Of a DNA stretch of 64,000 nt, positions 37,509 through 54,680 are shown piece after piece. The DNA is taken from contig CAWJQN010000003.1 of the NCBI GenBank assembly GCA_963845115.1, forward strand, positions 391,694 to 455,693, written 5' to 3'. The first letter of the stretch is position 1; each line of letters begins with the position of its first letter. Under the pieces are notes generated by a model that had not been told where the DNA came from, made no database searches, and was given only the letters and a program-made list of their open reading frames with translations. Source of the DNA: an uncultured delta proteobacterium (GTDB lineage Bacteria > Desulfobacterota > Desulfobulbia > Desulfobulbales > Desulfocapsaceae). The position numbers and the translations under genes are program-made.

Positions 37509-38234
37509 TCACGATAATGCTGAAGTGGTAAACCTGCCGCCAAGGCTGTAACGGGAGCCGGGATAAAAAAGCTTGCTGATAGTGGCCACATCCCCTTTGA
37601 CCCATGTTTTGCGGCTCAGGGCTAGACATGGTTCAGATTCGTTGATGTCAAGCAATTCACGTATCCAGGCATCGGGTATCATCGCCTCGACCACATGCTC
37701 TGCACTATATTCAGGCGCTACCTTGAGAAGATACTCGGCAGCAGAAGTGGATTCAAAATCCTGCTTTAGATAGTCTGGTGCAACCGAGGGATTGACAAAC
37801 CTGTCAGCGAGTTGCATGGGAATGTTGCTGTCATAATGGATCATTATTGAATGATATACTTTACTGTACGGTTTCACCCCCATTTCAACAGCTAACTGGG
37901 GAGAAGCCTTCTCCTCGCTGAGCAGATGAACCCTGCAGGAATAGTTACCGCCTCCCTTTTTTATAACTTCTGCTATGGAACTGATCTCCAGAAAGGTTGC
38001 CCTTGGTTTCTGGGCTGCCACAAACGTGCCGAGCCCTTGTCTACGGGTCAATTTCCCCTCAACGGCCAATTCACGTACAGCCCGGTTGACCGTCATCCTC
38101 GAGGTTGCAAAACGCTCCTCGAACTCAGCCTCAGAGGGTATCCTGGCCCCTATCTGCCATTCTCCATGATCGATTTTTTCTTCGATATATTCCTTGATTC
38201 TCCGGTATATCGGTTGTTGCTTTTTAGGTGCCAT
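37509..38234 (-). CDS. hutC: GntR/HutC-family repressor (histidine utilisation repressor)
   Basis: Start ATG 38234, 4 nt after the hutH stop. wHTH segment PSEAEFEERFATSRMTVNRAVRELAVEG, plus a UTRA effector domain. The genomic context is the hut genes. Confidence 0.8.
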   Translation of the reverse strand: MAPKKQQPIYRRIKEYIEEKIDHGEWQIGARIPSEAEFEERFATSRMTVNRAVRELAVEGKLTRRQGLGTFVAAQKPRATFLEISSIAEVIKKGGGNYSCRVHLLSEEKASPQLAVEMGVKPYSKVYHSIMIHYDSNIPMQLADRFVNPSVAPDYLKQDFESTSAAEYLLKVAPEYSAEHVVEAMIPDAWIRELLDINESEPCLALSRKTWVKGDVATISKLFYPGSRYSLGGRFTTSALS

Positions 38235-38238
38235 CTGC

Positions 38239-39798
38239 TTACTCACCCTCTCCGGTCTTCCCAAAACTTGGCAGCAGGTCGGCATCGATCAGCTCGTTGA
38301 AACGGCCAGACACCACCAGTTCCGTCGCCTGGTGAATATCGGGCGCGAAATAGCGGTCTTTGTCATAGAACGGAACACTTTCCCGCAGCATGGCTTTAGC
38401 CTTTTCAAGAGGTTGAGACGATCTCAAAGGAGATCTGAAGTCAAGCCCCTGGCAGACTGCAAGTAGCTCAATGCCCACGATGCCAGCTGTGTTTTCAGCC
38501 ATATCCGTGAGCCTCCGTGCGGCAAAGGTGGCCATAGAGACATGATCCTCCTGGTTTGCAGAGGTCGGGAGACTATCCACCGACGCTGGGTGGGCAAACG
38601 ATTTATTCTCACTGGCCAGGGCAGCAGCCGTTACCTGGGCAATCATGAAACCTGAGTTCAGCCCACCCTTCTCAACCAGAAATGGAGGCAGCTTGCTCAT
38701 GTGGGAATCGATCAAGAGGGCCATGCGCCTCTCTGCCAGGGCTCCGATTTCCGCGAACGCCAGCGCCAGATTGTCAGCCGCCATGGCCACCGGCTCGGCA
38801 TGAAAGTTTCCCCCTGAAATGATGTCAGACTGCTCGGAAAAAACCAGGGGGTTGTCTGAAACGCTGTTGGATTCAACCAATAGGGTTTCTGAAGCATTGC
38901 GTATTTGAGAGAGGCAGGCCCCCATGACCTGTGGCTGGCAGCGCAGTGAATAGGGATCCTGGACGGCTTCACAGTCCTCGTGCGATTTTTCGATTTCACT
39001 GTGCCTGAGCAACATGCGGTAAGTTCGAGCCACATCGATCTGGGTTTTATGCCCGCGTACTTCATGAATACTTTTCTCAAATGGGCGCCGGCTGGCAAGA
39101 GCAGCCTCCACACAGAGACTTCCCGTTACCATTGCAGCCGCAAAGAGATCCTCGGCAAGAAACAGCCCTTGTAGGGCCAGAGCGCATGAAGCCTGTGTTC
39201 CATTAAGAAGAGCAAGCCCCTCTTTAGGCCGGAGAACGACGGGATCAAGTCCGGCAATCTTCAGTCCCTGCCGTCCTGACAACCGCTCCCCCTTAACGAT
39301 AACTTCTCCTTCCCCCAGCAATACCGTGCTCATATGTGCAAGGGGCGCCAGGTCTCCGGATGCCCCGACTGAACCTTTTTCGGGAACACAGGGATAAACC
39401 TCTTCATTAACGAGTGCGATCAGCGCATCAATGACTTCTTGACGAATCCCGGAATATCCCCTGGCAAGACTGTTGATTTTCAGAACCATCATCAGCCTGA
39501 CAGTAGATTCTTTCATCAGCTTGCCTATTCCTGCGGCATGGGAGAGGACTATGGAGCGCTGCAGGTGTTCTAATTCATCGCTGGGAATAACGGTGTTGGC
39601 AAGCAGCCCGAAACCGGTATTGATTCCGTATATGATACGCCCCTGATCTATTATCTCCCTTACCGTATCGGATGATCTCCGAATCTGTTCGGCACTCTCA
39701 TGGCTCAGGGCAAGCTTTACAGGACCGTTCTGAATTCTCCGCAGCTGCTGGAGTGTCAGTTGACCTGGATACAGTCTTAATGTTTCTTTTCCGCTCAT
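38239..39798 (-). CDS. hutH: histidine ammonia-lyase
   Basis: 519 aa. MIO-forming motif [14 protein letters not shown], plus SQEDHVS-type and NxxxFxxE-type conserved blocks. Confidence 0.92.
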
Positions 39799-39860
39799 GG
39801 CTTTTCTGGTGTTTTAATTTGAATGGGAATAGATCTATGTGGCAGCATCTCCTGAATCAA

Positions 39861-39872
39861 TTGTATATATAA
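39861..39872. promoter_or_regulatory. candidate HutC operator upstream of hutH
   Basis: TTGTATATATAA lies about 65 nt upstream of the hutH ATG. It is one mismatch from the palindrome TTGTATATACAA. GntR/HutC-subfamily operators are GT-Nx-AC palindromes of this kind. Confidence 0.4.
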
Positions 39873-40094
39873 ATTAAAAACATGACAAGTGTTTTTTCTA
39901 CGCCCTGCCTCCCAAGCCAGAGTATTGACCAAAACGCCCACCAGGAACCATGGAGAAACCCACTATAATATCGATATAATTAATATTTAATTATACATAG
40001 GGAGTAATCAATCCGCCTGAAAATCCCCCTCAACTCTCTTTCCCCGAAATACCGCATTGATAAAAAAACAATCTCGGCGACCCTTAAAAATATA

Positions 40095-40106
40095 CTTGTA
40101 TACACA
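40095..40106. promoter_or_regulatory. candidate HutC operator upstream of hutU
   Basis: CTTGTATACACA contains the perfect palindrome TGTATACA (40097-40104), about 95 nt upstream of the hutU ATG. Confidence 0.35.
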
Positions 40107-40198
40107 TTTACTCTGTGTTATTTTTAATCTGCATTGCCAATACGATGAAGCGACCGAACACGCTTTGGGTTGTGCCCCATTTATCTCGAGAGGACAAA

Positions 40199-42229
40199 AT
40201 GTTTACCAATAAAGACGCAGAAGCTTCGATGAGAATACGACTCGATGATGCGCTTCCTGAGAGGACACCATTCAAGGAAGGGATACGCAGAGCGCCGGAC
40301 AGGGGATTCAGGCTGTCCGAGCAGCAGACGGTTGTTGCCCTGAGGAATGCACTCCGCTATATCCCTGAAAAACATCACCAGACCGTGATTCCGGAATTCC
40401 TGGAGGAACTGAGAACCAGAGGAAGAATTTACGGTTACAGGTTCAGACCCAAAACAGAGATAAAAGCCAAACCGATCGATTCATACAGGGGGAAGTGCCT
40501 TGAGGGCAAGGCTTTCCAACTGATGATGGACAACAATCTCGATTTTGACGTGGCCCTCTATCCCTACGAGCTTGTCACCTACGGTGAGACAGGAAGCGTC
40601 TGCCAGAACTGGATGCAGTACAACCTTATCCAGAGGTACCTGGAGGAAATGACCGAAAGCCAGACCCTGGTGGTACAGTCGGGGCACCCTCTGGGCCTGT
40701 TTCAATCAGCTCAGAACAGTCCACGTGTTATCATCACCAATGGTTTGATGGTCGGTCTTTACGACAATCCTGCAGACTGGGAAACGGCAACCCAGATGGG
40801 AGCGTCCTCCTATGGGCAGATGACCGCCGGCGGCTGGATGTACATTGGCCCTCAGGGAATCGTGCACGGCACTTACAACACCCTGCTCAACGCCGGCAGG
40901 AAGATGTGCGGTGTGCCAGCCGACGGTGCTCTGGACGGTCTTCTGTTTGTGTCTTCGGGGTTAGGCGGAATGAGCGGGGCCCAGCCCAAGGCAGCCAAAA
41001 TCGCCGGGGCGGCCTCAATTACAGCCGAGGTTGATTATTCCCGAATAACAACACGGCACCAACAGGGCTGGGTGGACGTGGTTTCCAGCGACCTCGAAGA
41101 AGTGGCGGCACTGGCCCAGAACGCGGTGGCACAAAAGGACAACACCTCAATCGCCTATCACGGCAACGTCGTTGATCTTTTGGAATTCCTTGCCGACAGA
41201 AGCATTAAGGTCGACCTGCTCTCAGACCAGACCTCCTGTCATGTGGTCTATGACGGAGGGTATTGTCCCCAGGGAATCACCTTTGAAGAACGCACCCGCC
41301 TGCTTGGCCAAGACCGGACGACCTTCATCAAAGCAGTGAACCAGAGCCTCAAAAAACACATCGAAGCAGTAAAAAAACTCGCTGACCAGGGTTCTTATTT
41401 CTTCGACTATGGGAATGCATTTCTGAAAGCGGTTTTTGACGCTGGAGTGACAGAGGTTTCCCGAAACGGTGTTGATGAAAAAGACGGTTTTATTTACCCG
41501 TCCTACTTTGAAGACATTATGGGGCCCATCTTCGATTACGGTTACGGCCCGTTTCGCTGGGTATGCCTGAGCGGCCGCCCCGAGGACCTGGATAATACAG
41601 ACCGGGCGGCCATGGCGTGCATAGACCCGGACCGCCGCAGTGAAGACCGGGACAACTATATCTGGATACGGGATGCAAAAAAGAATAGGATGGTTGTCGG
41701 CAGCCAAGCCCGGATACTGTACGCCGATGCCAGAGGCAGGGTTTCCATTGCCTTGAAATTCAACGAAATGGTGAGAGACAACGAGATTGGCCCGGTCATG
41801 CTGGGCAGGGACCACCATGATCCGGGCGGAACGGACTCCCCGTTTCGCGAAACAGCCAATATCAAAGACGGCAGCAATGTCTGCGCTGACATGGCAACGC
41901 ACTGTTTCGCCGGCAATGCAGCCCGCGGCATGTCCCTGGTTGCACTGCATAACGGTGGGGGAACCGGGATCGGCAAGGCCATTAATGGAGGTTTCGGACT
42001 GGTCCTCGACGGCAGTGAACGGGTTGACACCATCATCCGTTCAGCCATGAACTGGGACGTCATGGGCGGAGTGGCGCGCAGAAACTGGGCAAGAAACGAA
42101 AACGCAATGGAGGTTGCCGCCGAATACAACCTCAGAAATGAAAACAGTGACCAGATCACCATTCCCTACCTCGTGGAAAACGATCTGGTAAAACAATCGG
42201 TTGATGAATTGTTCTCTCACAGGAAATAG
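40199..42229 (+). CDS. hutU: urocanate hydratase, long (~676 aa) form
   Basis: Start moved to ATG 40199 (GAGAGGA upstream). NAD-site SSGLGGMSGAQPKAAK, plus the GTYNTL and GNAF blocks. The N-terminal extension ...RLSEQQTVVALRNALRYIPEKHH is characteristic of the long form. Confidence 0.9.
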   Translation: MFTNKDAEASMRIRLDDALPERTPFKEGIRRAPDRGFRLSEQQTVVALRNALRYIPEKHHQTVIPEFLEELRTRGRIYGYRFRPKTEIKAKPIDSYRGKCLEGKAFQLMMDNNLDFDVALYPYELVTYGETGSVCQNWMQYNLIQRYLEEMTESQTLVVQSGHPLGLFQSAQNSPRVIITNGLMVGLYDNPADWETATQMGASSYGQMTAGGWMYIGPQGIVHGTYNTLLNAGRKMCGVPADGALDGLLFVSSGLGGMSGAQPKAAKIAGAASITAEVDYSRITTRHQQGWVDVVSSDLEEVAALAQNAVAQKDNTSIAYHGNVVDLLEFLADRSIKVDLLSDQTSCHVVYDGGYCPQGITFEERTRLLGQDRTTFIKAVNQSLKKHIEAVKKLADQGSYFFDYGNAFLKAVFDAGVTEVSRNGVDEKDGFIYPSYFEDIMGPIFDYGYGPFRWVCLSGRPEDLDNTDRAAMACIDPDRRSEDRDNYIWIRDAKKNRMVVGSQARILYADARGRVSIALKFNEMVRDNEIGPVMLGRDHHDPGGTDSPFRETANIKDGSNVCADMATHCFAGNAARGMSLVALHNGGGTGIGKAINGGFGLVLDGSERVDTIIRSAMNWDVMGGVARRNWARNENAMEVAAEYNLRNENSDQITIPYLVENDLVKQSVDELFSHRK

Positions 42230-42249
42230 AAGCTACTGGTGAGCATCTG

Positions 42250-43503
42250 ATGTCATCGCAACTGTTTCTAAATGCCAGGATCTTCACCCCGCTTGACGCT
42301 GGCCGCCCGTCAGCGGGAAAGAGACAGGGTGAGTTGGCCCACTATGCCAGAGGGGCAATCCTGGTGGAAGACGGACTGATATCGAAAATCGGTGAAGAAC
42401 ACGTCGTGCTGCATGGACTCACAGCCAAAGAGCTCGACGATTCCTACGATTGCGCAGGTAAATGCCTCGTCCCCGGTTTTGTTGACCCCCACACTCACAA
42501 CTGCTTTGCAGCCCTGCGGGAAAAAGAGTTCGAGTTAAGAATCGCCGGCACGCCCTATCTGGAAATTCTGCGTCAGGGTGGCGGCATCCTCTCCTCCACC
42601 AGGAAAGTAGCCGCAGCGGACGTTGAAATATTGGCTGCAAATACGGCCAATCAGATACGCCGAGCGCTGAAACTTGGCACCACGACTATGGAGATCAAGA
42701 GCGGCTACGGACTCGATACGCAGAATGAACTGAAAATGCTCGAGGCTATAAAATTAGCCGCCGAACAGACCCCCATCGATATCGTGGCCACCTTTCTCGG
42801 AGCCCATGCCATACCCGACGATTTCAAGGAGCGATCTGACGATTTTATCACCTTGATCATCGAGGAGATGCTTCCGGCCGTCATGGAGCAGGGTGTGGCC
42901 CGCCATTGTGACATCTTTTGCGAGGAAGGGGTTTTCTCGATACCCCAGGGACGAAAGCTCCTCTCGGCCGCCCTCGAAGCGGGGCTGAAGATAAAGATCC
43001 ATGCAGATGAGGTCCATGACTTGGGAGGGGCCGGACTGGCAGCAGAGTTGGGAGCGCTTTCTGCGGACCACCTTCTGGCAGCCAACGACGACAATCTCGA
43101 TGCCATGGCCGCTGCAGGAGTTGTCGCTACGCTCCTTCCGGCTACCGCGTATAGCCTGAGAAAGCCCTATGCCAGGGCAAGGACAATGATCGGAAAAGAT
43201 CTCCCGGTGGCCCTGGCAACTGACTGCAACCCCGGATCGAGTTACACTGAGTCGATGCCGTTTGCGGCAGGTCTCGGCGTTATGAACATGCTCATGACCC
43301 CGGCGGAGGCCCTGACGGCAGCGACGCTTAACGGCGCTTATGCAATAGACATGGCTGACAGGGTGGGCAGCCTGGAAACAGGAAAACAAGCCGATTTTGT
43401 TCTCCTCGATGGCCAGTCTCCTGCAATCCTTGCTTATCATGCCGGCGTCTCTCCAGTTGAAGCTGTTTTCAAGAAAGGGAAGCGGGTCGATATAGACAAC
43501 TGA
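42250..43503 (+). CDS. hutI: imidazolonepropionase
   Basis: Amidohydrolase motifs GFVDPHTH, KIHADE and ATDCNPGS. Length 417 aa. Confidence 0.9.
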   Translation: MSSQLFLNARIFTPLDAGRPSAGKRQGELAHYARGAILVEDGLISKIGEEHVVLHGLTAKELDDSYDCAGKCLVPGFVDPHTHNCFAALREKEFELRIAGTPYLEILRQGGGILSSTRKVAAADVEILAANTANQIRRALKLGTTTMEIKSGYGLDTQNELKMLEAIKLAAEQTPIDIVATFLGAHAIPDDFKERSDDFITLIIEEMLPAVMEQGVARHCDIFCEEGVFSIPQGRKLLSAALEAGLKIKIHADEVHDLGGAGLAAELGALSADHLLAANDDNLDAMAAAGVVATLLPATAYSLRKPYARARTMIGKDLPVALATDCNPGSSYTESMPFAAGLGVMNMLMTPAEALTAATLNGAYAIDMADRVGSLETGKQADFVLLDGQSPAILAYHAGVSPVEAVFKKGKRVDIDN

Positions 43504-43540
43504 AACCCACACGGTCAAACGGACAGAAAACCAGACAAAA

Positions 43541-45157
43541 ATGAAGAAGATAGTTGAGTGCGTACCGAATTTTTCCGAAGGAAGAAACCAGGAAACCATC
43601 ACTGCCATCGCAGAGGCTATCCAAGCTGTTGAAGGCTGCCGACTCGTCGATGTCGACCCCGGCTATTCGACCAACCGGACCGTCTATACCTTCGTGGGTA
43701 ATCCGCATGACGTTGTGGAAGCAGCCCTGGCAGCCGCCAGAGTCGCCAGATCACGTATAGACATGCGCAGCCACACCGGCGAACACCCGCGCTTCGGAGC
43801 CATGGACGTGTGCCCGTTCGTTCCTGTTACCGGAATAACCATGGAGGAGTGCGCGGAGTTGGCCAGGCAGTTTGCGCAAAGAGCCTCACAAGAGCTCAAT
43901 ATACCCTTCTATCTTTATGAGCAGGCAGCCGAGAAGGATTACAGAAGAAAACTGCCGGACCTTCGGCAAGGCGAATATGAAGGCCTTGCCCAGCGGCTCA
44001 AGGACCCTCTGTGGAAACCTGACTTCGGTCCGGACGAGTTTGTCCCGGAGTGGGGAATAACCGCAACCGGCGCCAGGAATTTTCTTATCGCCTACAACGT
44101 CAACCTGCTGGCAACCCCAAACCAGGCCCATCGTATTGCCCTCAATATCAGAGAGGCAGGAAGGAGTGAAGAAGAACCCGGAAGGCTCAAGGAAGTTAAG
44201 GGTATGGGCTGGTTCGTCGATGAGTACAACACGGCTCAGGTAACGGTCAACCTGAATGACTACCGGATAACACCGATCCACACCCTCTTTGAAGAGGTGA
44301 AAAAAGACGCCGAGGCGCTGAATCTGCCGGTGGTTGGGTCGGAAGTTGTCGGGGTTGTTCCACTCGAATCCCTGATCATGGCCGCCGACTATTATATCGA
44401 CAAGGAGAACCTTTTTATTTACGAAGAGCAGCAGAAGCTCAGGCTGGCAATCGACCGCCTCGGATTGAATTCGATCGCTCCTTTTAAACCTGAAGAACGG
44501 ATCATCGAATATATCACCCGGGAAGAGCCTGACGAGCCGCTGGCGGGCACCACGGTGCGCGGCTTTATCGAAGAGGTTGCCTCCCGCTCTTCCGCCCCGG
44601 GCGGTGGCTCTGTTTCAGCGGTACTGGCGGCACTGGGCGTAGGGCTTGCCAGCATGGTGGCAAAATTGACGCACGGTGTGCGCAAGTTCGAGCCGGTTCA
44701 GGCTGAAATGGAGAACGTGATTCCAGCGCTGCACCACACCGTAAGAGAACTCATCCCTATGATCGATGCCGACACCTCTGCTTTCAATGAATTTATGGAG
44801 GGGGTGAGAATGGTGAGGGATACTGATGAGGAGCGGGCATTACGCGATCAGAAGATGCAGGCCGGGCTCAAGGCAGCAATCAGGGTTCCTCTTAAAACCA
44901 TGCGTCTCGGCGATTCGGTGTGGCCTCAGCTGATCGAGGTTGCTCGTCACGGGAACCCAGCCTCAAAGTCGGATACCCAGGTGGGAGCACGATCACTCGA
45001 GGCTGGCATCTGGGGGGCTTATCAGAATGTATTGATAAATATGGAGGACATAACCGACAACGTCTTCCGCAGCGAGGTACTCGACGAAACGTCGGCGATC
45101 ATGAGCCGGGCCGAGGGTAACTGCAGGGAGGTACTGAAGATACTGGATGAAATATGA
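43541..45157 (+). CDS. ftcD: bifunctional glutamate formimidoyltransferase / formimidoyl-THF cyclodeaminase
   Basis: The N-terminal IVECVPNFSEGRN marks the formiminotransferase domains. The C-terminal ~200 aa carries SSAPGGGSVSAVLAALG (cyclodeaminase domain). 538 aa in one ORF. Confidence 0.85.
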   Translation: MKKIVECVPNFSEGRNQETITAIAEAIQAVEGCRLVDVDPGYSTNRTVYTFVGNPHDVVEAALAAARVARSRIDMRSHTGEHPRFGAMDVCPFVPVTGITMEECAELARQFAQRASQELNIPFYLYEQAAEKDYRRKLPDLRQGEYEGLAQRLKDPLWKPDFGPDEFVPEWGITATGARNFLIAYNVNLLATPNQAHRIALNIREAGRSEEEPGRLKEVKGMGWFVDEYNTAQVTVNLNDYRITPIHTLFEEVKKDAEALNLPVVGSEVVGVVPLESLIMAADYYIDKENLFIYEEQQKLRLAIDRLGLNSIAPFKPEERIIEYITREEPDEPLAGTTVRGFIEEVASRSSAPGGGSVSAVLAALGVGLASMVAKLTHGVRKFEPVQAEMENVIPALHHTVRELIPMIDADTSAFNEFMEGVRMVRDTDEERALRDQKMQAGLKAAIRVPLKTMRLGDSVWPQLIEVARHGNPASKSDTQVGARSLEAGIWGAYQNVLINMEDITDNVFRSEVLDETSAIMSRAEGNCREVLKILDEI

Positions 45158-45244
45158 TCTTTTGAGGGATTTGTTGGGGCTGCAACAGCCGGCTAGGCAG
45201 AAAACAGCCGTCATTACCAAAGAAAAAAAAGAAAGGAGGAACAC

Positions 45245-46345
45245 ATGGATAGACGAGATTTTTTAAAAACTGCAGGAGCGACGGCACTGACCACAGCGGC
45301 GATGACGACATCTTTTGCCGCCCCGGCGATTGCCCAGGGAAAGATACAATGGAAAATGGTTACCGCCTGGCCCAAGAACCTGCCGGGCCCCGGTGTTGCT
45401 GCCCAGATGCTCGCCGACAGGATCACCGCCCTGTCGGGTGGACGTCTCGAGGTGAAGCTCTACGCCGCTGGTGAGCTGGTTCCCGGAAAAGGCGTGTTCG
45501 ATGCCGTTTCAGAAGGTACTGCAGAGCTGTATCACGCTGTTCCCGCCTACTGGGGATCCAAGTCCAAGGGGTTCCTGCTTTTTGGTTCCCAACCCTTCGG
45601 CCTCAGGGCCGACGAACAGGTGGGCTGGATGATGCATGGCGGCGGCCAGGCCCTCTATGATGAGATGTACGCCCGTTTCGATCTCAAACCGTTCCTCTGC
45701 GGCAACTCAGGCCCCCAGTGGGCGGGCTGGTTCCGTAAAGAAATCAACTCACCTGAAGATTTCAAGGGACTGCGTTTCCGCACCACCGGCCTTGCTTCTG
45801 AAATGTGCTCAAAACTGGGAATGGCGGTCCAGGCAATGGGCGGCCGTGATCTATTCCAGGCGCTGCAGTCCGGGGCACTCGATGCCGGTGAATTCATCGG
45901 TCCGTGGACCGATTCAGCTCTGGGTTTCTATCAGGTAGCCAAGTACTACTACTGGCCGGGAGTCGGAGAACCTTCCTCTGCAGAGGAATGCGCGGTCAAT
46001 ATGAAGGCCTACGAGAAACTGCCCAAAGATTTGCAGCAGGCAGTTGCTTATGCCTGTGAAAGCCTCTACAATCCCGTCTTGACGGAATACATTACAAAAC
46101 ACGCACTGGCACTGCAGAAGATGGTTGCCGAACAGGGTGTGCAGGTAAGAAAGCTTCCCGATGACGTCATCATTGCCATGGGCAATGCTGCGGGTGAGGT
46201 GATAGAGGACCTGCGTAACGACTCAGATGAATTAGTCCGGCGCATTACAGAGAGCTTCCTGACCTATCGCGCCTCCGTTTCGGAATACATGGTGTATGCC
46301 GACAGCGGCCAGATGAATGCGAGAGTCATGGACTATAAGTATTAG
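45245..46345 (+). CDS. TRAP transporter substrate-binding protein (DctP family) with Tat-type signal
   Basis: MDRRDFLKTAGATALTTAAMTTSFAAPAIAQG is followed by a DctP-type fold (WKMVTAWPKNLPG..., ...GLRFRT...). Confidence 0.85.
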   Translation: MDRRDFLKTAGATALTTAAMTTSFAAPAIAQGKIQWKMVTAWPKNLPGPGVAAQMLADRITALSGGRLEVKLYAAGELVPGKGVFDAVSEGTAELYHAVPAYWGSKSKGFLLFGSQPFGLRADEQVGWMMHGGGQALYDEMYARFDLKPFLCGNSGPQWAGWFRKEINSPEDFKGLRFRTTGLASEMCSKLGMAVQAMGGRDLFQALQSGALDAGEFIGPWTDSALGFYQVAKYYYWPGVGEPSSAEECAVNMKAYEKLPKDLQQAVAYACESLYNPVLTEYITKHALALQKMVAEQGVQVRKLPDDVIIAMGNAAGEVIEDLRNDSDELVRRITESFLTYRASVSEYMVYADSGQMNARVMDYKY

Positions 46346-46364
46346 ATAAACTCTACCTGGTAGA

Positions 46365-46396
46365 CAGGTGGACCGCCTCTAGGGGTGGTCCGCCTG
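46365..46396 (+). promoter_or_regulatory. intercistronic stem-loop between dctP-like and dctQ-like genes
   Basis: CAGGTGGACCGCC (46365-46377) pairs with GGTGGTCCGCCTG (46384-46396). This gives 13 bp including two G:U pairs, with a 6-nt loop. It ends 12 nt before the dctQ-like ATG. Confidence 0.55.
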
Positions 46397-46407
46397 TGTG
46401 GCTGAAA

Positions 46408-46914
46408 ATGGACAAAATCATAACCAGATTGGAGGCGGTCAACCTCTTTGTAGGCAACACGGTGAGATGGTTTGCGCTGCTCATGCTGTTGCTCCAGTTT
46501 GTCATCGTCGTCTTGAGATACGTGTTCGGCATCAGCTATATTTTTCTGAACGAAGGGGTTCTCTACCTGCACGCTTCCCTGTTCATGCTGGGAGCGGGAT
46601 ACACATTGCTGGTCGACAAGCATGTACGGGTCGATATTTTCTACGCCAATCGATCGAAACGGGGCAAAGCACTGACAGACATCTTCGGTCATCTATGCTT
46701 TCTCATTCCCTCTATGCTGCTTCTCCTTTACTATACCTGGCCTTCAGTAACAGACTCCTGGGCAATCCTTGAGGGACCGATTTCCGTGGGAGGCATCCCG
46801 GCCTCCTATCTGCTGAAGTCCCTTATTCCTGCGTTTGCACTGCTCCTGATTATCCAATGCGTTGCCAATCTCGCAAAAGACGTATTGATACTGAGAGTAT
46901 CAAACAGTTCCTGA
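46408..46914 (+). CDS. TRAP transporter small permease (DctQ family)
   Basis: About 168 aa with four hydrophobic helices. It lies between the SBP and the large permease. ATG 46408 is preferred over GTG 46396. Confidence 0.8.
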   Translation: MDKIITRLEAVNLFVGNTVRWFALLMLLLQFVIVVLRYVFGISYIFLNEGVLYLHASLFMLGAGYTLLVDKHVRVDIFYANRSKRGKALTDIFGHLCFLIPSMLLLLYYTWPSVTDSWAILEGPISVGGIPASYLLKSLIPAFALLLIIQCVANLAKDVLILRVSNSS

Positions 46915-46927
46915 CCGTGCGCCAGTC

Positions 46928-48484
46928 ATGACCAATTCACCTCTGGATATCCTACTCGTCATAGCCTTGATAAGCGGTATACTGCTTGGCTATCCGGTCT
47001 CTTTTACCCTGGCCGGCACGGCGACAATTTTTGCATTTCTTGGCTGGATCACGGGCTCTTTCGACTTGAGTCTGCTCGGGGCACTTGCCCAGCGGGCCTT
47101 CGGGCTGCTGACCAACCACGTATTGATCGCCATTCCTCTTTTCGTGCTGATGGGAGTGATCCTTGAAAAAAGCAAGATTGCAGAAGAGCTGCTGGAAACC
47201 ATGGGCAGGCTTTTCGGCAGGGTCAGAGGCGGCCTGGGAATTTCGGTTATCCTCGTGGGCGCCCTGCTGGCCGCTTCGACTGGCATAGTGGGAGCAACGG
47301 TGGTGGCAATGGGCCTGATTGCCCTGCCCACCATGCTGAGGAACAATTACGATCCAAAACTCGCCTGCGGGATAGTTTGCACGTCGGGGACGCTCGGTCA
47401 GATCATTCCCCCATCGACTCTGCTGATAATCCTCACCGATGTGATGTCCAACGCCTACCAGCAGGCGCAATACACCAAGGGCCAATTCACCATCGACACA
47501 ATCTCCGTTGGGCAGATGTTCGCGGCTGCACTTTTACCGGGGCTGGTGCTGGTATCTGTATATCTCGTGTACCTGATAGCAAGAGCGTGGATCTCTCCTG
47601 ATGTCGCTCCGGCCTTGACGGGAGAGGAGTTTAGCCGACCAACCCCGGGGGAAGTGTCCCGGGCAGTGGTGCCCCCGATTGTGCTCATCATCGCTGTCCT
47701 CGGTTCAATCCTGGCAGGGATCGCCACACCCAGCGAGGCCGCCTCCGTCGGCGCCATCGGAGCGGTCCTGATGGCGGGCGCCCGTCTCGGGGGGTCTGCT
47801 CGCCTGATGATCATGGGCACGGTTGCTCTCATTGCCTTGGCCGTCGTTGCCGGAATTGCGCCGGTTCGCCTTCAGCGATCAGATGCCGGCCTTAATGAAT
47901 GGCTGATCGGTTCGGTCTGTATTGTTCTCACCCTTTTCGGCTGTTACGCAATTTACAAGGCATTACGGCAGACGCTTGAGAAGAAGCTGCTGGGAGATAT
48001 TCTCACATCCACGATGGTGGTGACATCAATGATTTTTGCCACCATCCTGACCGCCAGCATGTTCTCCCTCGTATTTATCGGCCTTGGAGGTGATGCCCGG
48101 ATTGAGTGGGTGATCACGGCAATGCCAGGAGGGGCGACCGGGGCCCTGATTTTCTCCATGGTATTGATCTTTGTTCTCGGCTTTTTTCTTGATTTCGTGG
48201 AAATAAGCGTCATTCTGCTGCCCCTGGTGTGTCCCATACTGATTCTGATGGGCCATGACCCGGTGTGGCTGTCGATGCTGATCGCCATCAATCTGCAGAC
48301 CTCGTTTCTGACGCCGCCGTTCGGCTTCTCCCTCTTCTATCTGCGCGGAGCAGCTCCGCCGGAAGTCAGTACGGGGCAGATTTACCGGGGTGTCGCCCCA
48401 TTCATCGTTCTCCAGGTGATAGGAATGGCTATTCTCTGGTTTGTCCCGGGTCTCGCAACCTACTTACCCAAAATAGTCTTTTAA
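46928..48484 (+). CDS. TRAP transporter large permease (DctM family)
   Basis: 518-aa polytopic protein with the DctM-type pattern (…TGIVGATVVAMG..., ...FLTPPFGFSLFYL...). Confidence 0.85.
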   Translation: MTNSPLDILLVIALISGILLGYPVSFTLAGTATIFAFLGWITGSFDLSLLGALAQRAFGLLTNHVLIAIPLFVLMGVILEKSKIAEELLETMGRLFGRVRGGLGISVILVGALLAASTGIVGATVVAMGLIALPTMLRNNYDPKLACGIVCTSGTLGQIIPPSTLLIILTDVMSNAYQQAQYTKGQFTIDTISVGQMFAAALLPGLVLVSVYLVYLIARAWISPDVAPALTGEEFSRPTPGEVSRAVVPPIVLIIAVLGSILAGIATPSEAASVGAIGAVLMAGARLGGSARLMIMGTVALIALAVVAGIAPVRLQRSDAGLNEWLIGSVCIVLTLFGCYAIYKALRQTLEKKLLGDILTSTMVVTSMIFATILTASMFSLVFIGLGGDARIEWVITAMPGGATGALIFSMVLIFVLGFFLDFVEISVILLPLVCPILILMGHDPVWLSMLIAINLQTSFLTPPFGFSLFYLRGAAPPEVSTGQIYRGVAPFIVLQVIGMAILWFVPGLATYLPKIVF

Positions 48485-48498
48485 TCAGGGAGTTCCTG

Positions 48499-49611
48499 GT
48501 GAATGAAAACGGACTGAATATAAAACATATTGTAAAAAAACAGGTGTTAGAGCTGCCGAGATATCAGCCGGGCCTGCCCGAGGAGATCGTCAGGCAGCGC
48601 TATCAGGTTGATAGAATCGCCAGGCTGGCCAGCAACGAAAACCCTTTTGGAACCAGCCCTCTGGCCCTGAGCGCTGTGGTCAAAGTTATAGCTCAGCTGT
48701 GGAAATACAGCGATCCTGACTCTGCCAGGCTCAAAGCAGCACTGAGCAGCGCAACCGGAACCTCCGGCGAAAAAATTGTCATCGGTAACGGTTCCGAAGA
48801 TCTTATTGCGCTGATCTGCCGAGCCTGCCTTGAAAAAAAGGACCGGGTTGTCACCGTGCACCCGTCCTTTCTCCTCCACGAAATATATCCTTTGGAGCAG
48901 GGTGCCGATGTTACGGCCGTCCCGATGCGGGAAGACTTTTCATTTGATGTGGATGGCATCATTAGGGAATTGCACAAGGGCTGCCGGATGCTGATTTTCA
49001 GCAACCCTTCAAACCCGGTGGGGACACTTCTCGACCGCTCCGGGGCTGAGAAGCTCTGCCGGGCGGTCTCCCCGGAGACCATACTGGTTATCGACGAAGC
49101 CTATTATGAGTACGTTAAGGATCTCGATAATTTCCCGGACAGCCGTTCCATAATGAAAAAACTTCCCAATCCCCATGTTGTTCTCAGATCCTTTTCAAAA
49201 GCCTACGGATTGGCGGGAGCACGAGTTGGATACGGCCTGTTTTCACACAGCTCTTTCGCTGATCAGATCAACAAGCTGAGGAATCCCTTCAATGTGAACC
49301 TGGTTGCCCAGGCCGCTGCGGAAGCGGCACTGGGCGACCGTGAGCACATAGAGAAAACCGTGCGTTTCAACGAGCTGGAGCGGTCACGGCTCATGAAGGA
49401 GTTGCATAAAAGAGGGCTGAGGGTTGCCAGGTCCTATGCAAATTTTCTTTTCGTGGACTGTGGTCGAAGCAGCCGTGAGACGGCGGAAGAACTCCTCGCT
49501 CACGGTATTATCGTCAAACCTTGGACAGCCAGGGGATATGAGACATTTCTCAGGATAACCATCGGCAGAATCGAAGATAATGACAGGATGCTCAACCTCC
49601 TTGCAAAGTGA
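48499..49611 (+). CDS. HisC-family (class II) aminotransferase, histidinol-phosphate/aromatic aminotransferase-like
   Basis: Track ORF trimmed to GTG 48499 (GGGAG 7 nt upstream, 14 nt after the dctM-like stop). Motifs: ASNENPFGTSP, NPSNPVG, and SFSKAYGLAGARVGYG (PLP lysine). Confidence 0.8.
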   Translation: MNENGLNIKHIVKKQVLELPRYQPGLPEEIVRQRYQVDRIARLASNENPFGTSPLALSAVVKVIAQLWKYSDPDSARLKAALSSATGTSGEKIVIGNGSEDLIALICRACLEKKDRVVTVHPSFLLHEIYPLEQGADVTAVPMREDFSFDVDGIIRELHKGCRMLIFSNPSNPVGTLLDRSGAEKLCRAVSPETILVIDEAYYEYVKDLDNFPDSRSIMKKLPNPHVVLRSFSKAYGLAGARVGYGLFSHSSFADQINKLRNPFNVNLVAQAAAEAALGDREHIEKTVRFNELERSRLMKELHKRGLRVARSYANFLFVDCGRSSRETAEELLAHGIIVKPWTARGYETFLRITIGRIEDNDRMLNLLAK

Positions 49612-49710
49612 GTTTTAATCCGAAAAGATTGGAATGCAGAGCTGGCAAATCTGATCGGTCCAAGTCATAACGCTTTCTATTCACACAGATTTCAAACGGC
49701 CAGTCACGCC

Positions 49711-52518
49711 ATGTCAGACCATTCAAGTCATAAGCTTACCAGCGAAATTTCCGAATTCATCCCGGCAGACAGGGTATTTTCCGATGAAACAAGAAGGAGG
49801 GCCTTCTCCGCTGATGCCAGCATGTTCTTTCGCCTGGCTCAGGTCGTTGTCGATGTGCTCAGCGAGAAAGAAGTTATTGACTTGATAGAATACTCCGGCA
49901 CCAGGAAAACAGGGCTCACGTTTCGCGGCAGTGGCACGAGTCTGAACGGCCAATGCAGCGGAACCGGAATTCTCGTCCGCATGAAAGGTCCGGTCTGGCA
50001 GAAACTGCATGTTCACAATAACGGAACTGAAATCACCAGTTGGTCCGGGGTTATCGGTTCCCGGTTGAATGAAGCCCTGCTTCCTTATGGGAGAAAAATA
50101 GGTCCCGATCCTTCCTCGCTTGCTGCAGCCTGCTTCGGCGGGATGCTGGCCAACAATGCCGCCGGAGGATGCTGTACCGTCGCGCAGAACATCTATTCGA
50201 CATTGAAAAGCATACGGTTCATCCTGCACGATGGAACAATCATCGACACTTCCGACAAAAAGAGTGTGGACCGTTTTCGTTCCACTCACGAGAAATTGCT
50301 CGGCAGGCTTTCCGATCTGCGCCAGGAGATACTGGATGACAGCGAACTGGCAGCACGTATCCGTCGAAAATATCGCATTAAGAATACCTGCGGATATGCG
50401 GTCAACGCATTCGTCGATTTCAGCGATCCGCTGGAGATCCTCGCCCATCTGCTCATCGGCTCGGAAGGGACTCTGGGGTTTGTATCGAGTGCAACAATTG
50501 GAACCATCCCTGTTTCTACCCTGCGTGCCACCGCACTGGTCATTTTTCCAAATCTGGAAAACGGAATACCAGCGGTAAAGCGCTGGAGTGACTCGGGCGC
50601 AGCCAATGCTGCGGAGTTGTTTGACTGGCCGACTTTGAAAGCACTTATCACACTGCCGGCAACTCCTCAGACAGTAAAGCAGCTCAAAGATGATGGCTGT
50701 GCAATCCTGCTTGAAACCCAGGCAAATGACGAACAGACGCTGCACAAAAACATATCGACCCTGCTTGATGCCCTGAAAGGCATTGAAACCATTGGTGAAC
50801 CGCAGTTTTCTACCGACCCCGAGGTTTGCGAGTCGCTCTGGGCCTTTCGTCGGTCTCTTTTTCCTGCTGTTTCCAGTGCCAGAAAACCGCATGAATTGAT
50901 ACTGATCGAAGACTTTTGTGTTCCTCTGGATAAAATCGAACAAGGATGCAAAAAATTCGAAGAACTTTTCAATCGTTACGGATACAGCGGTGGTCTTCAC
51001 GGCCATGTCTTTCACGGCAACTTCCATTTCGCGCTGCCGATGGACCTATCCTCTGAAGATAAGGTGATAAGAATTCACCGGTTCATAAAAGAAATGGTGG
51101 ACATCGTGGTCAGTCTCGACGGGTCTCTCAAAGCAGAGCATGGCACCGGTTATGCGGTGGCACCTTTTGTCGAACTGGAATGGGGGGCAAAGATCTATGC
51201 AATTATGAAACGGGTGAAACACCTGCTTGACCCGGACAATATTTTCAATCCTGGAGTCCTGCTGAATGACGATCCGGAGTGCCACACCAAACAGCTAAAA
51301 ACCCCCGTTGCCTGCCACCCGCTCATTGACAATTGTGTTGAATGTGGTTTCTGCGACCCTGTCTGTCCTTCCAGGGACATAGGCTTGACACCACGGCAGC
51401 GGGTATCATTGCTCCGCCATATCGCATGGCTAGAGCAGCAGGGTCGAAGCAATGCTGAAACTTGGCAGCAATCCTATGACAAACTCGGAACGGATCTGTG
51501 CGCCGCTGACGGTATCTGCACCACGAGGTGTCCACTTTCCGTTGATATTGCCGGTTTTACCAGAAGCCGCCGCTGCAGCCAGGCAACTGAGTTCAATCGC
51601 TTGACGGCAGCCAAGATCAGCAGCCATTTCGAGATGGCGACGAAAGGAACATCGCTCTTGTTGAACGGTATATCCGTGGCTCAGCGTATTTTCGGGGATG
51701 CAATGCTGTACAAAGGCTCCAATGCGGCGCGAAAACTGAGTCGATCCAGACTGCCGAGCTGGAATGAACAGATGCCCCGAGGAGCAAAAGCGTTGCCAGA
51801 GCCGGGCAGAAAAGAGCCAGATTATGTTGTTTATATCCCGTCCTGTGCGATCAGAACCATGGGGGACAGCGTTCATGATCCGGCAGAACCGCTTGCCGAG
51901 GTAACCGTCCGCCTGCTTGAGAAGGCTCGATATTCGGTCCTCATTCCGGAAAATATCGGTAAACTATGCTGTGGCAAAGCCTTTGAGACCAAAGGACTGC
52001 TGGAGGAAGCAGACGCCAAGGCCGCTGAGATGGAAAAAGCGTTGCTCGAATTAAGCGGCAACGGTCAGGTTCCCATTCTTTGTGAAACCAGCCCCTGCCT
52101 GGCACGGATGAGAAAAGTCATGGACGCTCGTTTAAAGCTCTACGAGCCCATTGAGTTCACCACGAAATATCTTCTCAAAAGACTGAAATTGAACAGGAAG
52201 TATGGGAAAATAGCCATTCATCCCACCTGTTCTACCAGGCTCTTAGAACTTGAAAACAATCTCTTGTACCTGGCGGAGCAATGTTCCGATCAGGTTGTCT
52301 GGCCACGACATATTCAATGTTGCGGTTTCTCGGGAGATAAGGGATTCAGCCATCCCGAACTCAATCGATCGGCCCTCGAAACCCTGGCTGAACAGATCAA
52401 GGGATGCGAGGAAGGTTTCAGCACCTCCCGGACATGTGAAATCGGTCTGGCCTTGCACGGCAAAATTCCCTACAAGAACATCTTCTACATGCTTGACCGG
52501 TGCGCGGATAGCGATTAG
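49711..52518 (+). CDS. YdiJ-like FAD-binding + Fe-S (4Fe-4S dicluster, CCG domains) 2-hydroxyacid dehydrogenase
   Basis: N-terminal FAD_binding_4/PCMH (GLTFRGSGTSLNGQ) and FAD-oxidase C domain. CVECGFCDPVCPS and CAADGICTTRCP ferredoxin motifs follow. C-terminal Cys-rich repeats: CCGKAFE and CCGFSGDKGF. Confidence 0.8.
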   Translation: MSDHSSHKLTSEISEFIPADRVFSDETRRRAFSADASMFFRLAQVVVDVLSEKEVIDLIEYSGTRKTGLTFRGSGTSLNGQCSGTGILVRMKGPVWQKLHVHNNGTEITSWSGVIGSRLNEALLPYGRKIGPDPSSLAAACFGGMLANNAAGGCCTVAQNIYSTLKSIRFILHDGTIIDTSDKKSVDRFRSTHEKLLGRLSDLRQEILDDSELAARIRRKYRIKNTCGYAVNAFVDFSDPLEILAHLLIGSEGTLGFVSSATIGTIPVSTLRATALVIFPNLENGIPAVKRWSDSGAANAAELFDWPTLKALITLPATPQTVKQLKDDGCAILLETQANDEQTLHKNISTLLDALKGIETIGEPQFSTDPEVCESLWAFRRSLFPAVSSARKPHELILIEDFCVPLDKIEQGCKKFEELFNRYGYSGGLHGHVFHGNFHFALPMDLSSEDKVIRIHRFIKEMVDIVVSLDGSLKAEHGTGYAVAPFVELEWGAKIYAIMKRVKHLLDPDNIFNPGVLLNDDPECHTKQLKTPVACHPLIDNCVECGFCDPVCPSRDIGLTPRQRVSLLRHIAWLEQQGRSNAETWQQSYDKLGTDLCAADGICTTRCPLSVDIAGFTRSRRCSQATEFNRLTAAKISSHFEMATKGTSLLLNGISVAQRIFGDAMLYKGSNAARKLSRSRLPSWNEQMPRGAKALPEPGRKEPDYVVYIPSCAIRTMGDSVHDPAEPLAEVTVRLLEKARYSVLIPENIGKLCCGKAFETKGLLEEADAKAAEMEKALLELSGNGQVPILCETSPCLARMRKVMDARLKLYEPIEFTTKYLLKRLKLNRKYGKIAIHPTCSTRLLELENNLLYLAEQCSDQVVWPRHIQCCGFSGDKGFSHPELNRSALETLAEQIKGCEEGFSTSRTCEIGLALHGKIPYKNIFYMLDRCADSD

Positions 52519-52721
52519 CAGCGTTGGCCCGCGATGAGCTGGCCGCCAGGATCTGAAAAGCGACCAGCAGGACAACGGCAAACGCTTTTGCTTTGCACTG
52601 AGGATTGAGGTATCTTTACCTGCAGGCTCCCCCGCACCATAGCGTTGGTTCGGATGGAGCATGCAGGCAACCTCGACCCCACTGACTGGTGCAGGTAAGC
52701 AACCCCCGATTGAAGAGGAAG

Positions 52722-53345
52722 ATGATGAGCAGAAGCCAGATAATTTTCAGTACCTACAGTCCGCTGATGGCGGTTGATTCGAAGCTGATCAACAGCGACG
52801 GCCTGCCGCTGAAGATGGAGCGGGTCACCTCGCTCTGCCGCTGCGGGGAATCGAAGTACAAGCCGCTGTGCGACGGCTCCCATGCCTCGGCCGGCTTCGA
52901 GGGCAGCCGTGAAGACTCTGACAAGCCAGAGCCCGAGTATTATGAAGGCCAGAAGATTACCATCGTCTTCGATCGCTACCTGTGCATGGGGGCTGGCTTC
53001 TGCGGTGAACTCGAATCGGTTTTCGGTACCCACGAGACCCCGACCTACCTGCCCGATGCAGCCCCGGTCGAAGAGATCATCGAAACGATACGTAAGTGCC
53101 CGTCAGGAGCTCTGAGCTACATTGTCGACGGCGTTCACCACAAGAATTATTTTGAGGGAACCGAGCAGATCGTCGCTGAAAAAAATGGGCCGCTGAACAT
53201 CCAGGGCACGATAACCCTGATCGACGACCAGGACTCGGACAAACTGCTGCCGATGGCCGACCACTTTTCGCTGTGCCGATGCGGTGGATCCAAAAAGAAA
53301 CCGATCTGCGACGGCTCTCACAGCGACAACGGTTTCGAAGGCTGA
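52722..53345 (+). CDS. CDGSH iron-sulfur protein with two zf-CDGSH motifs flanking a ferredoxin-like segment
   Basis: CRCGESKYKPLCDGSH and CRCGGSKKKPICDGSH. The central segment FDRYLCMGAGFCGE...IRKCPSGAL resembles a mono-cluster 4Fe-4S ferredoxin. Start ATG 52722 (GAGGAAG upstream). Confidence 0.8.
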   Translation: MMSRSQIIFSTYSPLMAVDSKLINSDGLPLKMERVTSLCRCGESKYKPLCDGSHASAGFEGSREDSDKPEPEYYEGQKITIVFDRYLCMGAGFCGELESVFGTHETPTYLPDAAPVEEIIETIRKCPSGALSYIVDGVHHKNYFEGTEQIVAEKNGPLNIQGTITLIDDQDSDKLLPMADHFSLCRCGGSKKKPICDGSHSDNGFEG

Positions 53346-53360
53346 GCGGGCACCCTTCCC

Positions 53361-54452: not shown

Positions 54453-54680
54453 AGCCGACCTGACCAGTTGATTGAGAAAATCGTTGCCTCCCGGCAAATG
54501 TGCTGGTGGTAACTGTAATACTTAAAATCGGAATGTCCGCTGGTTCACAAACGGACGACAATGGGGCTTGCATCTGTCGCCCGGAATTCTTATCACATCA
54601 CTATTGGTTGCATGAACAGCGCGGCGTATCCGTCTGCACCGAATCGTCGATATTTTATCATTGTAAACGGGGGGTACCTC

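Follow-up and report, generated by a model that had tools for sequence, protein, structure and literature searches.

An aminotransferase, a dehydrogenase and a TRAP transporter joined to a Desulfocapsaceae hut operon: candidate genes for channelling imidazole 2-oxo and 2-hydroxy acids to the Hut pathway

A 64-kb stretch of DNA (hereafter the window) within a 3.7-Mb genome of 7 contigs was analysed around its histidine utilization (hut) locus; the window's named homologues fall in the Desulfocapsaceae, near Desulfofustis. The gene array was established by listing open reading frames (ORFs) and by Pfam and NCBIfam family scans. These placed hutU-hutI-ftcD, the tripartite ATP-independent periplasmic (TRAP) transporter genes dctP-dctQ-dctM, a HisC-family aminotransferase gene and the gene for a flavin adenine dinucleotide (FAD)/iron-sulfur (Fe-S) dehydrogenase on one strand with short gaps, in families that match an earlier reading of the same DNA (the original prediction). 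From this context and from conserved residues it is suggested, with about an even chance of being correct, that hutU-hutI-ftcD gained a feeder module through which imidazole 2-oxo and 2-hydroxy acids enter the breakdown of histidine. For the aminotransferase and the dehydrogenase, such a feeder role is the best-supported reading.

The aminotransferase gene (48499..49611, + strand; 370 aa) lies in an ORF that opens at 48265 and overlaps dctM, with homology and all relatives (~370 aa) beginning at the GTG at 48499. To place it among its relatives, 80 genome loci around them were fetched and the hut genes there were marked by tblastn. Aminotransferases 43-83% identical to that of the window were found within ~10 kb of hutC, hutH, hutU or hutI in genomes of four classes: in the Desulfocapsaceae, in Betaproteobacteria (Comamonadaceae and others, with Variovorax, Xenophilus, Polaromonas, Hydrogenophaga and Lampropedia), in Gammaproteobacteria (Serratia, Rahnella, Rouxiella and Symbiopectobacterium) and in Alphaproteobacteria (Komagataeibacter and Beijerinckia). 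Matches at or below 42% identity were mostly not linked to hut, with the exception of one locus at 42% (L059). In a maximum likelihood tree, a hut-type aminotransferase clade of 60 rows was recovered on a stem of length 1.0 with a Shimodaira-Hasegawa-like approximate likelihood ratio (SH-aLRT) of 100, and 28 HisC-type rows, including the genome's own hisC, fell outside it. Hut genes lay within 12 kb of 45 of the 60 hut-type aminotransferases, as against 0 of the 28 HisC-type rows, and the sole hut-linked aminotransferase outside the clade was that of a single metagenome locus, L141. The tree places the window aminotransferase as a sister branch of the NF003496/PRK05166 family.

A dehydrogenase gene adjoins 32 of the 60 hut-type aminotransferases, taking a gap of <400 nt as adjacent, and none of the 28 HisC-type genes. 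Four kinds of partner were seen. The window and its closest relatives carry an FAD/Fe-S enzyme of the Dld-II type, and Komagataeibacter a GlcD-type FAD oxidase followed by hutD and hutC, a GlcD-type FAD gene being also found upstream of the aminotransferase in many Comamonadaceae. The third kind is a flavin mononucleotide (FMN)-dependent L-2-hydroxyacid dehydrogenase (FMN_dh), found in the Erwiniaceae, Rahnella, Rouxiella and some Serratia, and the fourth a GldA-like NAD dehydrogenase, found in Serratia and Symbiopectobacterium. Because these non-homologous enzymes, all of which take a secondary alcohol to a ketone, adjoin one aminotransferase clade in hut operons, they provide the strongest argument for a sequence of reactions running from a 2-hydroxy acid through a 2-oxo acid to histidine.

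The same partners bear on the possibility that the aminotransferase is catabolic and converts histidine and 2-oxoglutarate to imidazole-pyruvate and glutamate, as a nitrogen-scavenging or overflow branch whose keto or hydroxy product is handled by the dehydrogenase. Transamination is reversible, the TRAP transporter could supply histidine, and operons of the transporter and aminotransferase also occur away from hutHU. The partner dehydrogenases, however, are oxidative flavoenzymes that take the hydroxy acid to the keto acid; GlcD- and Dld-type FAD, FMN_dh and FAD/Fe-S enzymes run in that direction and not in reverse. Furthermore, the clusters examined showed no enzyme that would degrade imidazole-pyruvate any further, and as a rule the genes are linked to a complete Hut pathway. 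A catabolic role is improbable.

Comparison with HisC itself gave a mixed picture at the level of family models. The window aminotransferase has the HisC fold and pyridoxal phosphate residues, and passes the cut-off of the HisC model TIGR01141 (299 against 276.55 bits). It scores higher, at 430 bits, on NF003496, a score under that model's cut-off of 540, with the Variovorax, Komagataeibacter and Serratia proteins at 588, 528 and 504 bits, respectively. HisC contacts its substrate, histidinol phosphate, at the phosphate and the imidazole through two arginines and one tyrosine. R33, Y127 and R340 (window numbering), which may correspond to these contacts, are invariant or near-invariant in the 28 HisC-type rows and are replaced in the hut-type clade by Q/S/E, H and K, respectively. 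By grouping and by invariant residues, the window protein therefore stands apart from HisC. It is unlike HisC also in that aminotransferases of its type are never found in a his or aromatic operon, and its genome has a separate HisC-family gene on contig C2, 35% identical to the window protein, which adjoins cmk and scores best on the hisC model. The window aminotransferase is best taken, on this comparison, as a hut-associated paralogue and not as HisC, and the whole clade, labelled histidinol-phosphate transaminase, is probably something else.

The transporter genes preceding the aminotransferase encode a solute-binding protein with a twin-arginine translocation (Tat) signal, DctP (45245..46345, +; Pfam TAT_signal and DctP, the latter at 3.8e-46), a small membrane subunit, DctQ (46396..46914, +; Pfam DctQ), and a large permease of 518 aa, DctM (46928..48484, +; Pfam DctM; TIGR00786, 269 bits). 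Their order is conserved in all relatives. The start of dctQ is uncertain, the DctQ proteins of relatives being 159-175 aa, and a DctM length of 516-518 aa is kept in hut-linked orthologues. DctP matches TakP of Rhodobacter sphaeroides (PDB 2hzk/2hzl) at 1.3e-64 over residues 1-352 in the case of 2hzk, and the 'ketoacid-binding protein' 7ug8 at 5e-60. Further proteins that bind pyruvate or keto acids match at 1e-56 to 1e-60, and for TakP, 7ug8, 4pet and 5cm6 as a set the range is 1e-56 to 1e-64. In TakP, a Tyr and an Arg hold the carboxylate, a Gln and two Glu hold a cation lying as a bridge between carboxylate and keto oxygen, and the hydrophobic cavity accepts C3-C5 aliphatic keto acids (TakP paper). 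All of the residues for carboxylate, keto oxygen and cation are kept in the window protein, with Y102, Q158, R179, E216 and E242 aligning with Y100, Q156, R177, E214 and E240 of TakP, and they are invariant in 94 DctP orthologues except for one substitution of R179. The layout of the DctPQM genes is also the same.

The two proteins are unlike in the rest of the pocket and in context. DctP departs from TakP at no fewer than six pocket-lining positions (Ala for Y99, Gly for T213, Phe for W215, Ser for P243 and Glu for V245, plus a neighbouring Glu). The resulting residues of this hut branch, A101, G215, F217, S245, E247 and E248, are invariant in the 94 orthologues, and TakP-like pocket residues are retained by the genome's own TakP-like paralogue (41% identical to DctP). 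DctP stands beside hut, whereas TakP is encoded in an orphan context. An enlarged pocket with two extra carboxylates would fit an imidazole side chain. Identity between the DctP proteins of Desulfocapsaceae and those of Alphaproteobacteria (Stappia, Pelagibius and Nitratireductor) is 74-96%, which is unusually high for a solute-binding protein. As a separate observation, the second TakP-like TRAP system of the genome (L183, G000:C5:67000-83000) is located downstream of arginase-family and ArgZ-like genes, a position that hints at a different 2-oxo-acid substrate. It was also noted that the aminotransferase-bearing hut cluster of Serratia and Symbiopectobacterium encodes an SsuA/NMT1-type ATP-binding cassette (ABC) transporter between hutC and hutH (L026:3822-6491), through which those bacteria may take up their imidazole substrate.

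To follow the transporter and aminotransferase within the family, 61 Desulfocapsaceae genomes were sampled. The long form of hutU was found in ~21 of these, and TRAP orthologues (>=85% identity) and hut-type aminotransferases (>=49%) co-occurred in exactly the same 6 genomes, leaving ~15 hutU-positive genomes with neither. No transporter was found in the hut clusters of three genomes that lack both (G018, G012 and G055), which consist just of hutC-hutH and hutU-hutI-ftcD. The neighbourhood survey bears out the linkage of hut, TRAP and aminotransferase genes to which the original prediction drew attention: besides the 6 of 61 family genomes, the adjacency recurs in contigs from other assemblies and metagenomes, and is far beyond chance. 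In two further relatives, dctPQM and the aminotransferase form an operon of their own away from hutHU. In the metagenome locus L141 (2060-12792), on an unrelated contig with a third kind of Hut gene set, hutH, the long hutU, a HisC-type aminotransferase gene, dctPQM, a formimidoylglutamase-type hutG and hutI occur together, and the aminotransferase, which is outside the PRK05166 clade, is placed between hutU and the TRAP orthologue; this is an independent recruitment of an aminotransferase beside the orthologous hut-TRAP. Co-occurrence in the same six genomes, the separate dctPQM-aminotransferase operons and L141 together favour a substrate shared by the transporter and the aminotransferase. 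Co-occurrence in the same six genomes is also explained by shared descent of an operon block.

The dehydrogenase gene (49711..52518, +; 935 aa) encodes FAD_binding_4, FAD-oxidase_C and 4Fe-4S domains and a GlpC/CCG-like C-terminus. Sources that name its nearest homologues (43-51% identity) call them D-lactate dehydrogenase, and the window protein has the length and domain plan of the Dld-II-type D-lactate dehydrogenases annotated in Desulfovibrionales and Shewanella. It is unlike them in distribution. The widely conserved Dld-II copy of the family is a separate gene on C1, 43% identical to the window protein, whereas the hut-linked copy is a narrow branch (74-84% identity) found in few genomes. 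Orthologues of 79-84% identity follow the aminotransferase only in the nearest relatives (L002/L010, L003 and L009), and aminotransferases of 51-62% identity close their operon with no dehydrogenase after them. On this distribution the dehydrogenase is a late addition to the module, limited to the window's closest relatives. Identity as the glycolate oxidase GlcD was rejected (TIGR00387, 150 bits against a cut-off of 568).

More distant relatives of the dehydrogenase (61-66% identity) stand in clusters with a GntR regulator, a SnoaL-like protein, a LarA-like racemase and a TRAP system. The LarA/TRAP context of these relatives indicates that the branch consists of D-2-hydroxyacid dehydrogenases acting on imported acids. 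The arrangement of GntR(FCD), LarA-like racemase, DctPQM and FAD/Fe-S dehydrogenase is conserved at L172:2163-17413, L173:2121-10820 and L004:3104-12805, with the SnoaL_2-like protein in L172 and L173 only. Such a cluster looks suited to using either enantiomer of a 2-hydroxy acid that the cell imports. Next after it in L172 come a fused 2-oxoacid:ferredoxin oxidoreductase-like gene and one for an ADP-forming acyl-CoA synthetase.

The dehydrogenase had been labelled YdiJ-type in the original prediction, which also raised recycling of D-2-hydroxyglutarate to 2-oxoglutarate as an alternative. Under that alternative the enzyme would be a D-2-hydroxyglutarate dehydrogenase that regenerates 2-oxoglutarate for the transaminase. 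It does have the YdiJ domain plan (FAD, Fe-S and CCG), and its best NCBIfam rows include the YdiJ model NF049975. However, the match to that model reaches 149 bits against a cut-off of 1350 and covers residues 24-517 only, which is the FAD half, and the orthologues stand with LarA-type racemases and monocarboxylate-type TRAPs. An aminotransferase running in the feeder direction makes 2-oxoglutarate, so none needs regenerating. The label was therefore dropped, as the names given to the homologues also suggest, and the recycling alternative is considered highly improbable.

A substrate outside histidine metabolism was also weighed, in which the transporter, aminotransferase and dehydrogenase serve an aromatic or aliphatic 2-hydroxy/2-oxo acid (phenyllactate/phenylpyruvate or lactate/pyruvate) and lie beside hut by accident. 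HisC-family enzymes often take aromatic keto acids, and PDB 4r2n, a 'putative phenylalanine aminotransferase', matches the window protein at 9e-41. The D-lactate dehydrogenase names and racemase-TRAP clusters of the dehydrogenase relatives point the same way, as do two Pseudomonas aminotransferases (41-43% identity) that are inside the hut-type clade yet not hut-linked, and Erwiniaceae members of the clade that do not adjoin hut. Against this, hut linkage of the aminotransferase in four classes, and of the transporter in 38 of 41 loci (see below), cannot be chance. The two extra pocket glutamates are invariant where TakP and the paralogue have V/L and H/S, and for ordinary substrates the genome has other genes, namely a second TakP-like TRAP and a distinct Dld-II paralogue. 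Such an accidental neighbourhood is quite unlikely.

A number of observations weigh against the feeder module as proposed. The context of the TRAP genes was examined in three alphaproteobacterial genomes and 80 metagenome contigs, 41 loci having enough upstream DNA. In 33 of these 41, dctPQM directly follows hutU, and hut genes are present in 38. TRAP orthologues of 74-87% identity end alphaproteobacterial hut operons, and an aminotransferase follows dctM in just 1 of 36 loci and is missing from the other 35. No hut-type aminotransferase was found anywhere in the genome of Stappia, the only one checked whole. In these operons without an aminotransferase the ligand therefore enters Hut without one, for which histidine or urocanate is simplest. 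The pair of glutamates that binds the cation in TakP could bind an alpha-ammonium group just as well. For the dehydrogenase, a 74% orthologue occurs in a same-genus genome (G054) without hut, TRAP or hut-type aminotransferase, between an NAD-dependent 2-Hacid_dh (D-2-hydroxyacid dehydrogenase) and a PALP-fold enzyme (L175:7725-12734), so that imidazole specificity cannot be read from orthology. Of the 60 hut-type aminotransferases, 28 have no adjacent dehydrogenase. Finally, support for co-transcription is absent from the sole RNA run, a metatranscriptome compared with positions 39800-53400. It gave short contigs mostly 90-95% identical, hence RNA of relatives; those listed bridge no gene junction and are neutral on co-transcription. 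A GntR(FCD) regulator and an aldehyde:ferredoxin oxidoreductase were also seen beside the G054 orthologue of the dehydrogenase.

The transporter evidence could accordingly be read in another way, with TRAP, in the window as in Alphaproteobacteria, simply bringing in histidine or urocanate for the hut operon, the aminotransferase and dehydrogenase as a separate add-on, and the link between TRAP and aminotransferase due to shared descent. The add-on would then salvage imidazole-pyruvate and imidazole-lactate made in the cell or entering by other routes. Besides the positions of dctPQM just described, the TRAP system is the sole transporter in those operons and also in the cluster of the window, and its pocket, which has a single arginine but four invariant glutamates, would suit an amino acid of positive charge. 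On the other hand, known structures of this branch of DctP show a 2-oxo acid bound together with a cation, none of whose ligands is lost in the window protein. In the Desulfocapsaceae, the TRAP system is never found without the aminotransferase (6 of 6), and the ~15 hutU-positive genomes lack both. The three hut operons examined without TRAP need no dedicated transporter, operons of TRAP and aminotransferase occur apart from hutHU, and a second, unrelated HisC-type aminotransferase was recruited beside the orthologous TRAP. An importer of histidine or urocanate with a separate salvage add-on is the main alternative, though less probable than the feeder module. The evidence is thus divided over the original prediction that the TRAP system imports an imidazole carboxylate: the TakP-type residues for keto acid and cation speak for it, and the alphaproteobacterial operons without an aminotransferase favour histidine or urocanate there.

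Returning to the feeder module, the following scheme is proposed. A TakP-family TRAP transporter would take up an imidazole carboxylate by way of its enlarged, acidic side-chain pocket, and the dehydrogenase would oxidise D-imidazole-lactate to imidazole-pyruvate, with electrons leaving through the Fe-S/CCG domain to the membrane or another acceptor. The aminotransferase would convert imidazole-pyruvate and glutamate to L-histidine and 2-oxoglutarate, from which HutH, HutU, HutI and FtcD would release glutamate, ammonia and a one-carbon unit bound to folate, the histidine being degraded in the process. Since Hut yields glutamate, the amino donor of the aminotransferase would be regenerated. 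The module would be accessory, with the transporter and aminotransferase travelling as a unit in the Desulfocapsaceae and the dehydrogenase joining later. The conversion of a 2-hydroxy acid to a 2-oxo acid and histidine for Hut had been part of the original prediction, and the genome context of the aminotransferase and dehydrogenase agrees with it; the parts given there to a CDGSH protein and to YdiJ did not survive, and the evidence on the TRAP ligand is divided as set out above.

A wider version of this proposal is put forward tentatively, at somewhat less than even confidence. In it, the histidine:2-oxoglutarate aminotransferase that has long been missing would be supplied by PRK05166-type proteins. 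These, with flavin or NAD dehydrogenases of D or L specificity that can stand in for one another, would form a cross-phylum, hut-attached module for imidazole-lactate and imidazole-pyruvate. The near-invariant hut-TRAP would be devoted to importing imidazole 2-oxo acids, or else histidine by a switch from cation to ammonium in a fold that binds keto acids.

The chemistry itself is not new. Coote and Hassall (Biochem J 1973, 132:409) reportedly described the conversion of imidazolyl-lactate through imidazolylpyruvate to histidine in Pseudomonas (now Comamonas) testosteroni and P. acidovorans, where an imidazolyl-lactate dehydrogenase and a histidine:2-oxoglutarate aminotransferase are said to feed Hut, the dehydrogenase being, by the same account, NAD(P)-linked and active on the L-isomer. 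The chemistry and end point proposed for the window are the same, and members of the aminotransferase clade are found in hut operons of the Comamonadaceae, the family of the original organisms. The window differs in that its dehydrogenase is an FAD/Fe-S enzyme of a D-specific family and not NAD(P)-linked, in that uptake is by TRAP, and in that the host is an anaerobic member of the Desulfocapsaceae with an FtcD-type Hut pathway. No bacterial gene is known to be assigned to either histidine transaminase or imidazole-lactate dehydrogenase. A literature search found no gene assignment for the imidazolyl-lactate pathway, a full-text search found no paper tying TRAP or a HisC-like aminotransferase to hut, and none was found on a conserved hut-TRAP system. 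The original statement that no such system had been described is thus right as to the genes found in the literature but not, given what the 1973 work reportedly described, as to the chemistry. Apparently undescribed are the assignment of genes, the interchangeability of the dehydrogenases, a TRAP branch specific to hut and the combination of these in an FtcD-type anaerobe.

If the proposal is true, it would supply candidate genes for a pathway reportedly known since 1973 only from enzyme assays, and context nominates candidates in tractable bacteria (Variovorax, Serratia and Komagataeibacter) as well as in this anaerobe. The annotation of the aminotransferase clade as histidinol-phosphate transaminase would likely be a misannotation. 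In hut operons from the sea and from sediments, the hut-TRAP is a standard component, highly conserved and uncharacterised. Metabolome studies of animals report both imidazole-lactate and imidazole-pyruvate as metabolites of histidine, and the module would bear on which organisms consume them in sediments and guts.

At the hut locus itself, hutC and hutH on the minus strand face hutU-hutI-ftcD on the plus strand. hutC (37509..38285) encodes a GntR/UTRA repressor (Pfam GntR and UTRA), orthologues of which flank hutH in relatives; its ORF start overlaps hutH, and the real start is probably slightly downstream. hutH (38239..39798) encodes histidine ammonia-lyase (TIGR01225, 695 bits against a cut-off of 539). 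On the opposite strand follow hutU (40115..42229) for the long-form urocanate hydratase (TIGR01228, 441 bits against a cut-off of 375; three urocanase Pfam domains), hutI (42250..43503) for imidazolonepropionase (TIGR01224, 463 bits against a cut-off of 298) and ftcD (43541..45157) for a fused glutamate formimidoyltransferase and cyclodeaminase (Pfam FTCD_N, FTCD and FTCD_C; TIGR02024, 393 bits). From ftcD through the dehydrogenase gene all genes are on the same strand, with gaps of 87, 50, 13, 14 and 99 nt; the ORF coordinates confirm the predicted distances of 87 nt between ftcD and dctP and 14 nt between dctM and the aminotransferase start. Among alphaproteobacterial and marine hut operons, TRAP is the standard last element of an arrangement of hutC-hutF and hutI-hutH-hutG-hutU-dctPQM (L089-L171).

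The divergent hutH/hutU control region (39860..40108, no strand assigned) contains two sites that resemble a HutC box. Scanning the whole window with the pattern CTTGTATATACAAG, up to 3 mismatches being allowed, gave matches at 39860-39873 and 40095-40108 only, both in this region and none inside the array from hutU to the dehydrogenase. The count is statistically weak, as 21 of 100 shuffles yield at least 2 matches. A terminator scan and folding revealed no terminator-like site in the gaps between ftcD and dctP or between the aminotransferase and the dehydrogenase; for the three gaps that were folded the z-scores were -0.24, 0.28 and -1.31, and the counts from promoter and terminator scans were not above those of shuffles.

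Beyond the dehydrogenase, after ~200 nt, lies a gene for a CDGSH-Fer4_19-CDGSH protein (52689 or 52722 to 53345), which had been proposed as the electron acceptor of the dehydrogenase. In relatives that share the aminotransferase-dehydrogenase pair, the CDGSH gene is absent after the dehydrogenase and other genes are found there; no orthologue was found in G058, which has the module, and orthologues (85% and 72%) occur in same-genus genomes without TRAP, aminotransferase or hut-type dehydrogenase. The adjacency is unique to this genome. The CDGSH gene was therefore rejected as a module member, and the proposed role falls with it. Together with a convergent metallo-beta-lactamase (MBL)-fold hydrolase gene (52722-54497 in the window), it is syntenic in a same-genus genome (L184:12135-13792), its orthologue in G018 likewise lying beside this MBL gene, and as the DNA upstream of it differs between the window and L184, insertion or rearrangement of the hut block beside the CDGSH/MBL pair is suggested. 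The CDGSH gene would best be assigned to the genus backbone.

In four of the family genomes, the long hutU is broken by in-frame stops or split (G008:C1:994411-996456, G022:C1:2179624-2181659, G039:C44:91586-93389 and G056:C31:48366-50426); these interrupted copies are either pseudogenes or assembly errors.

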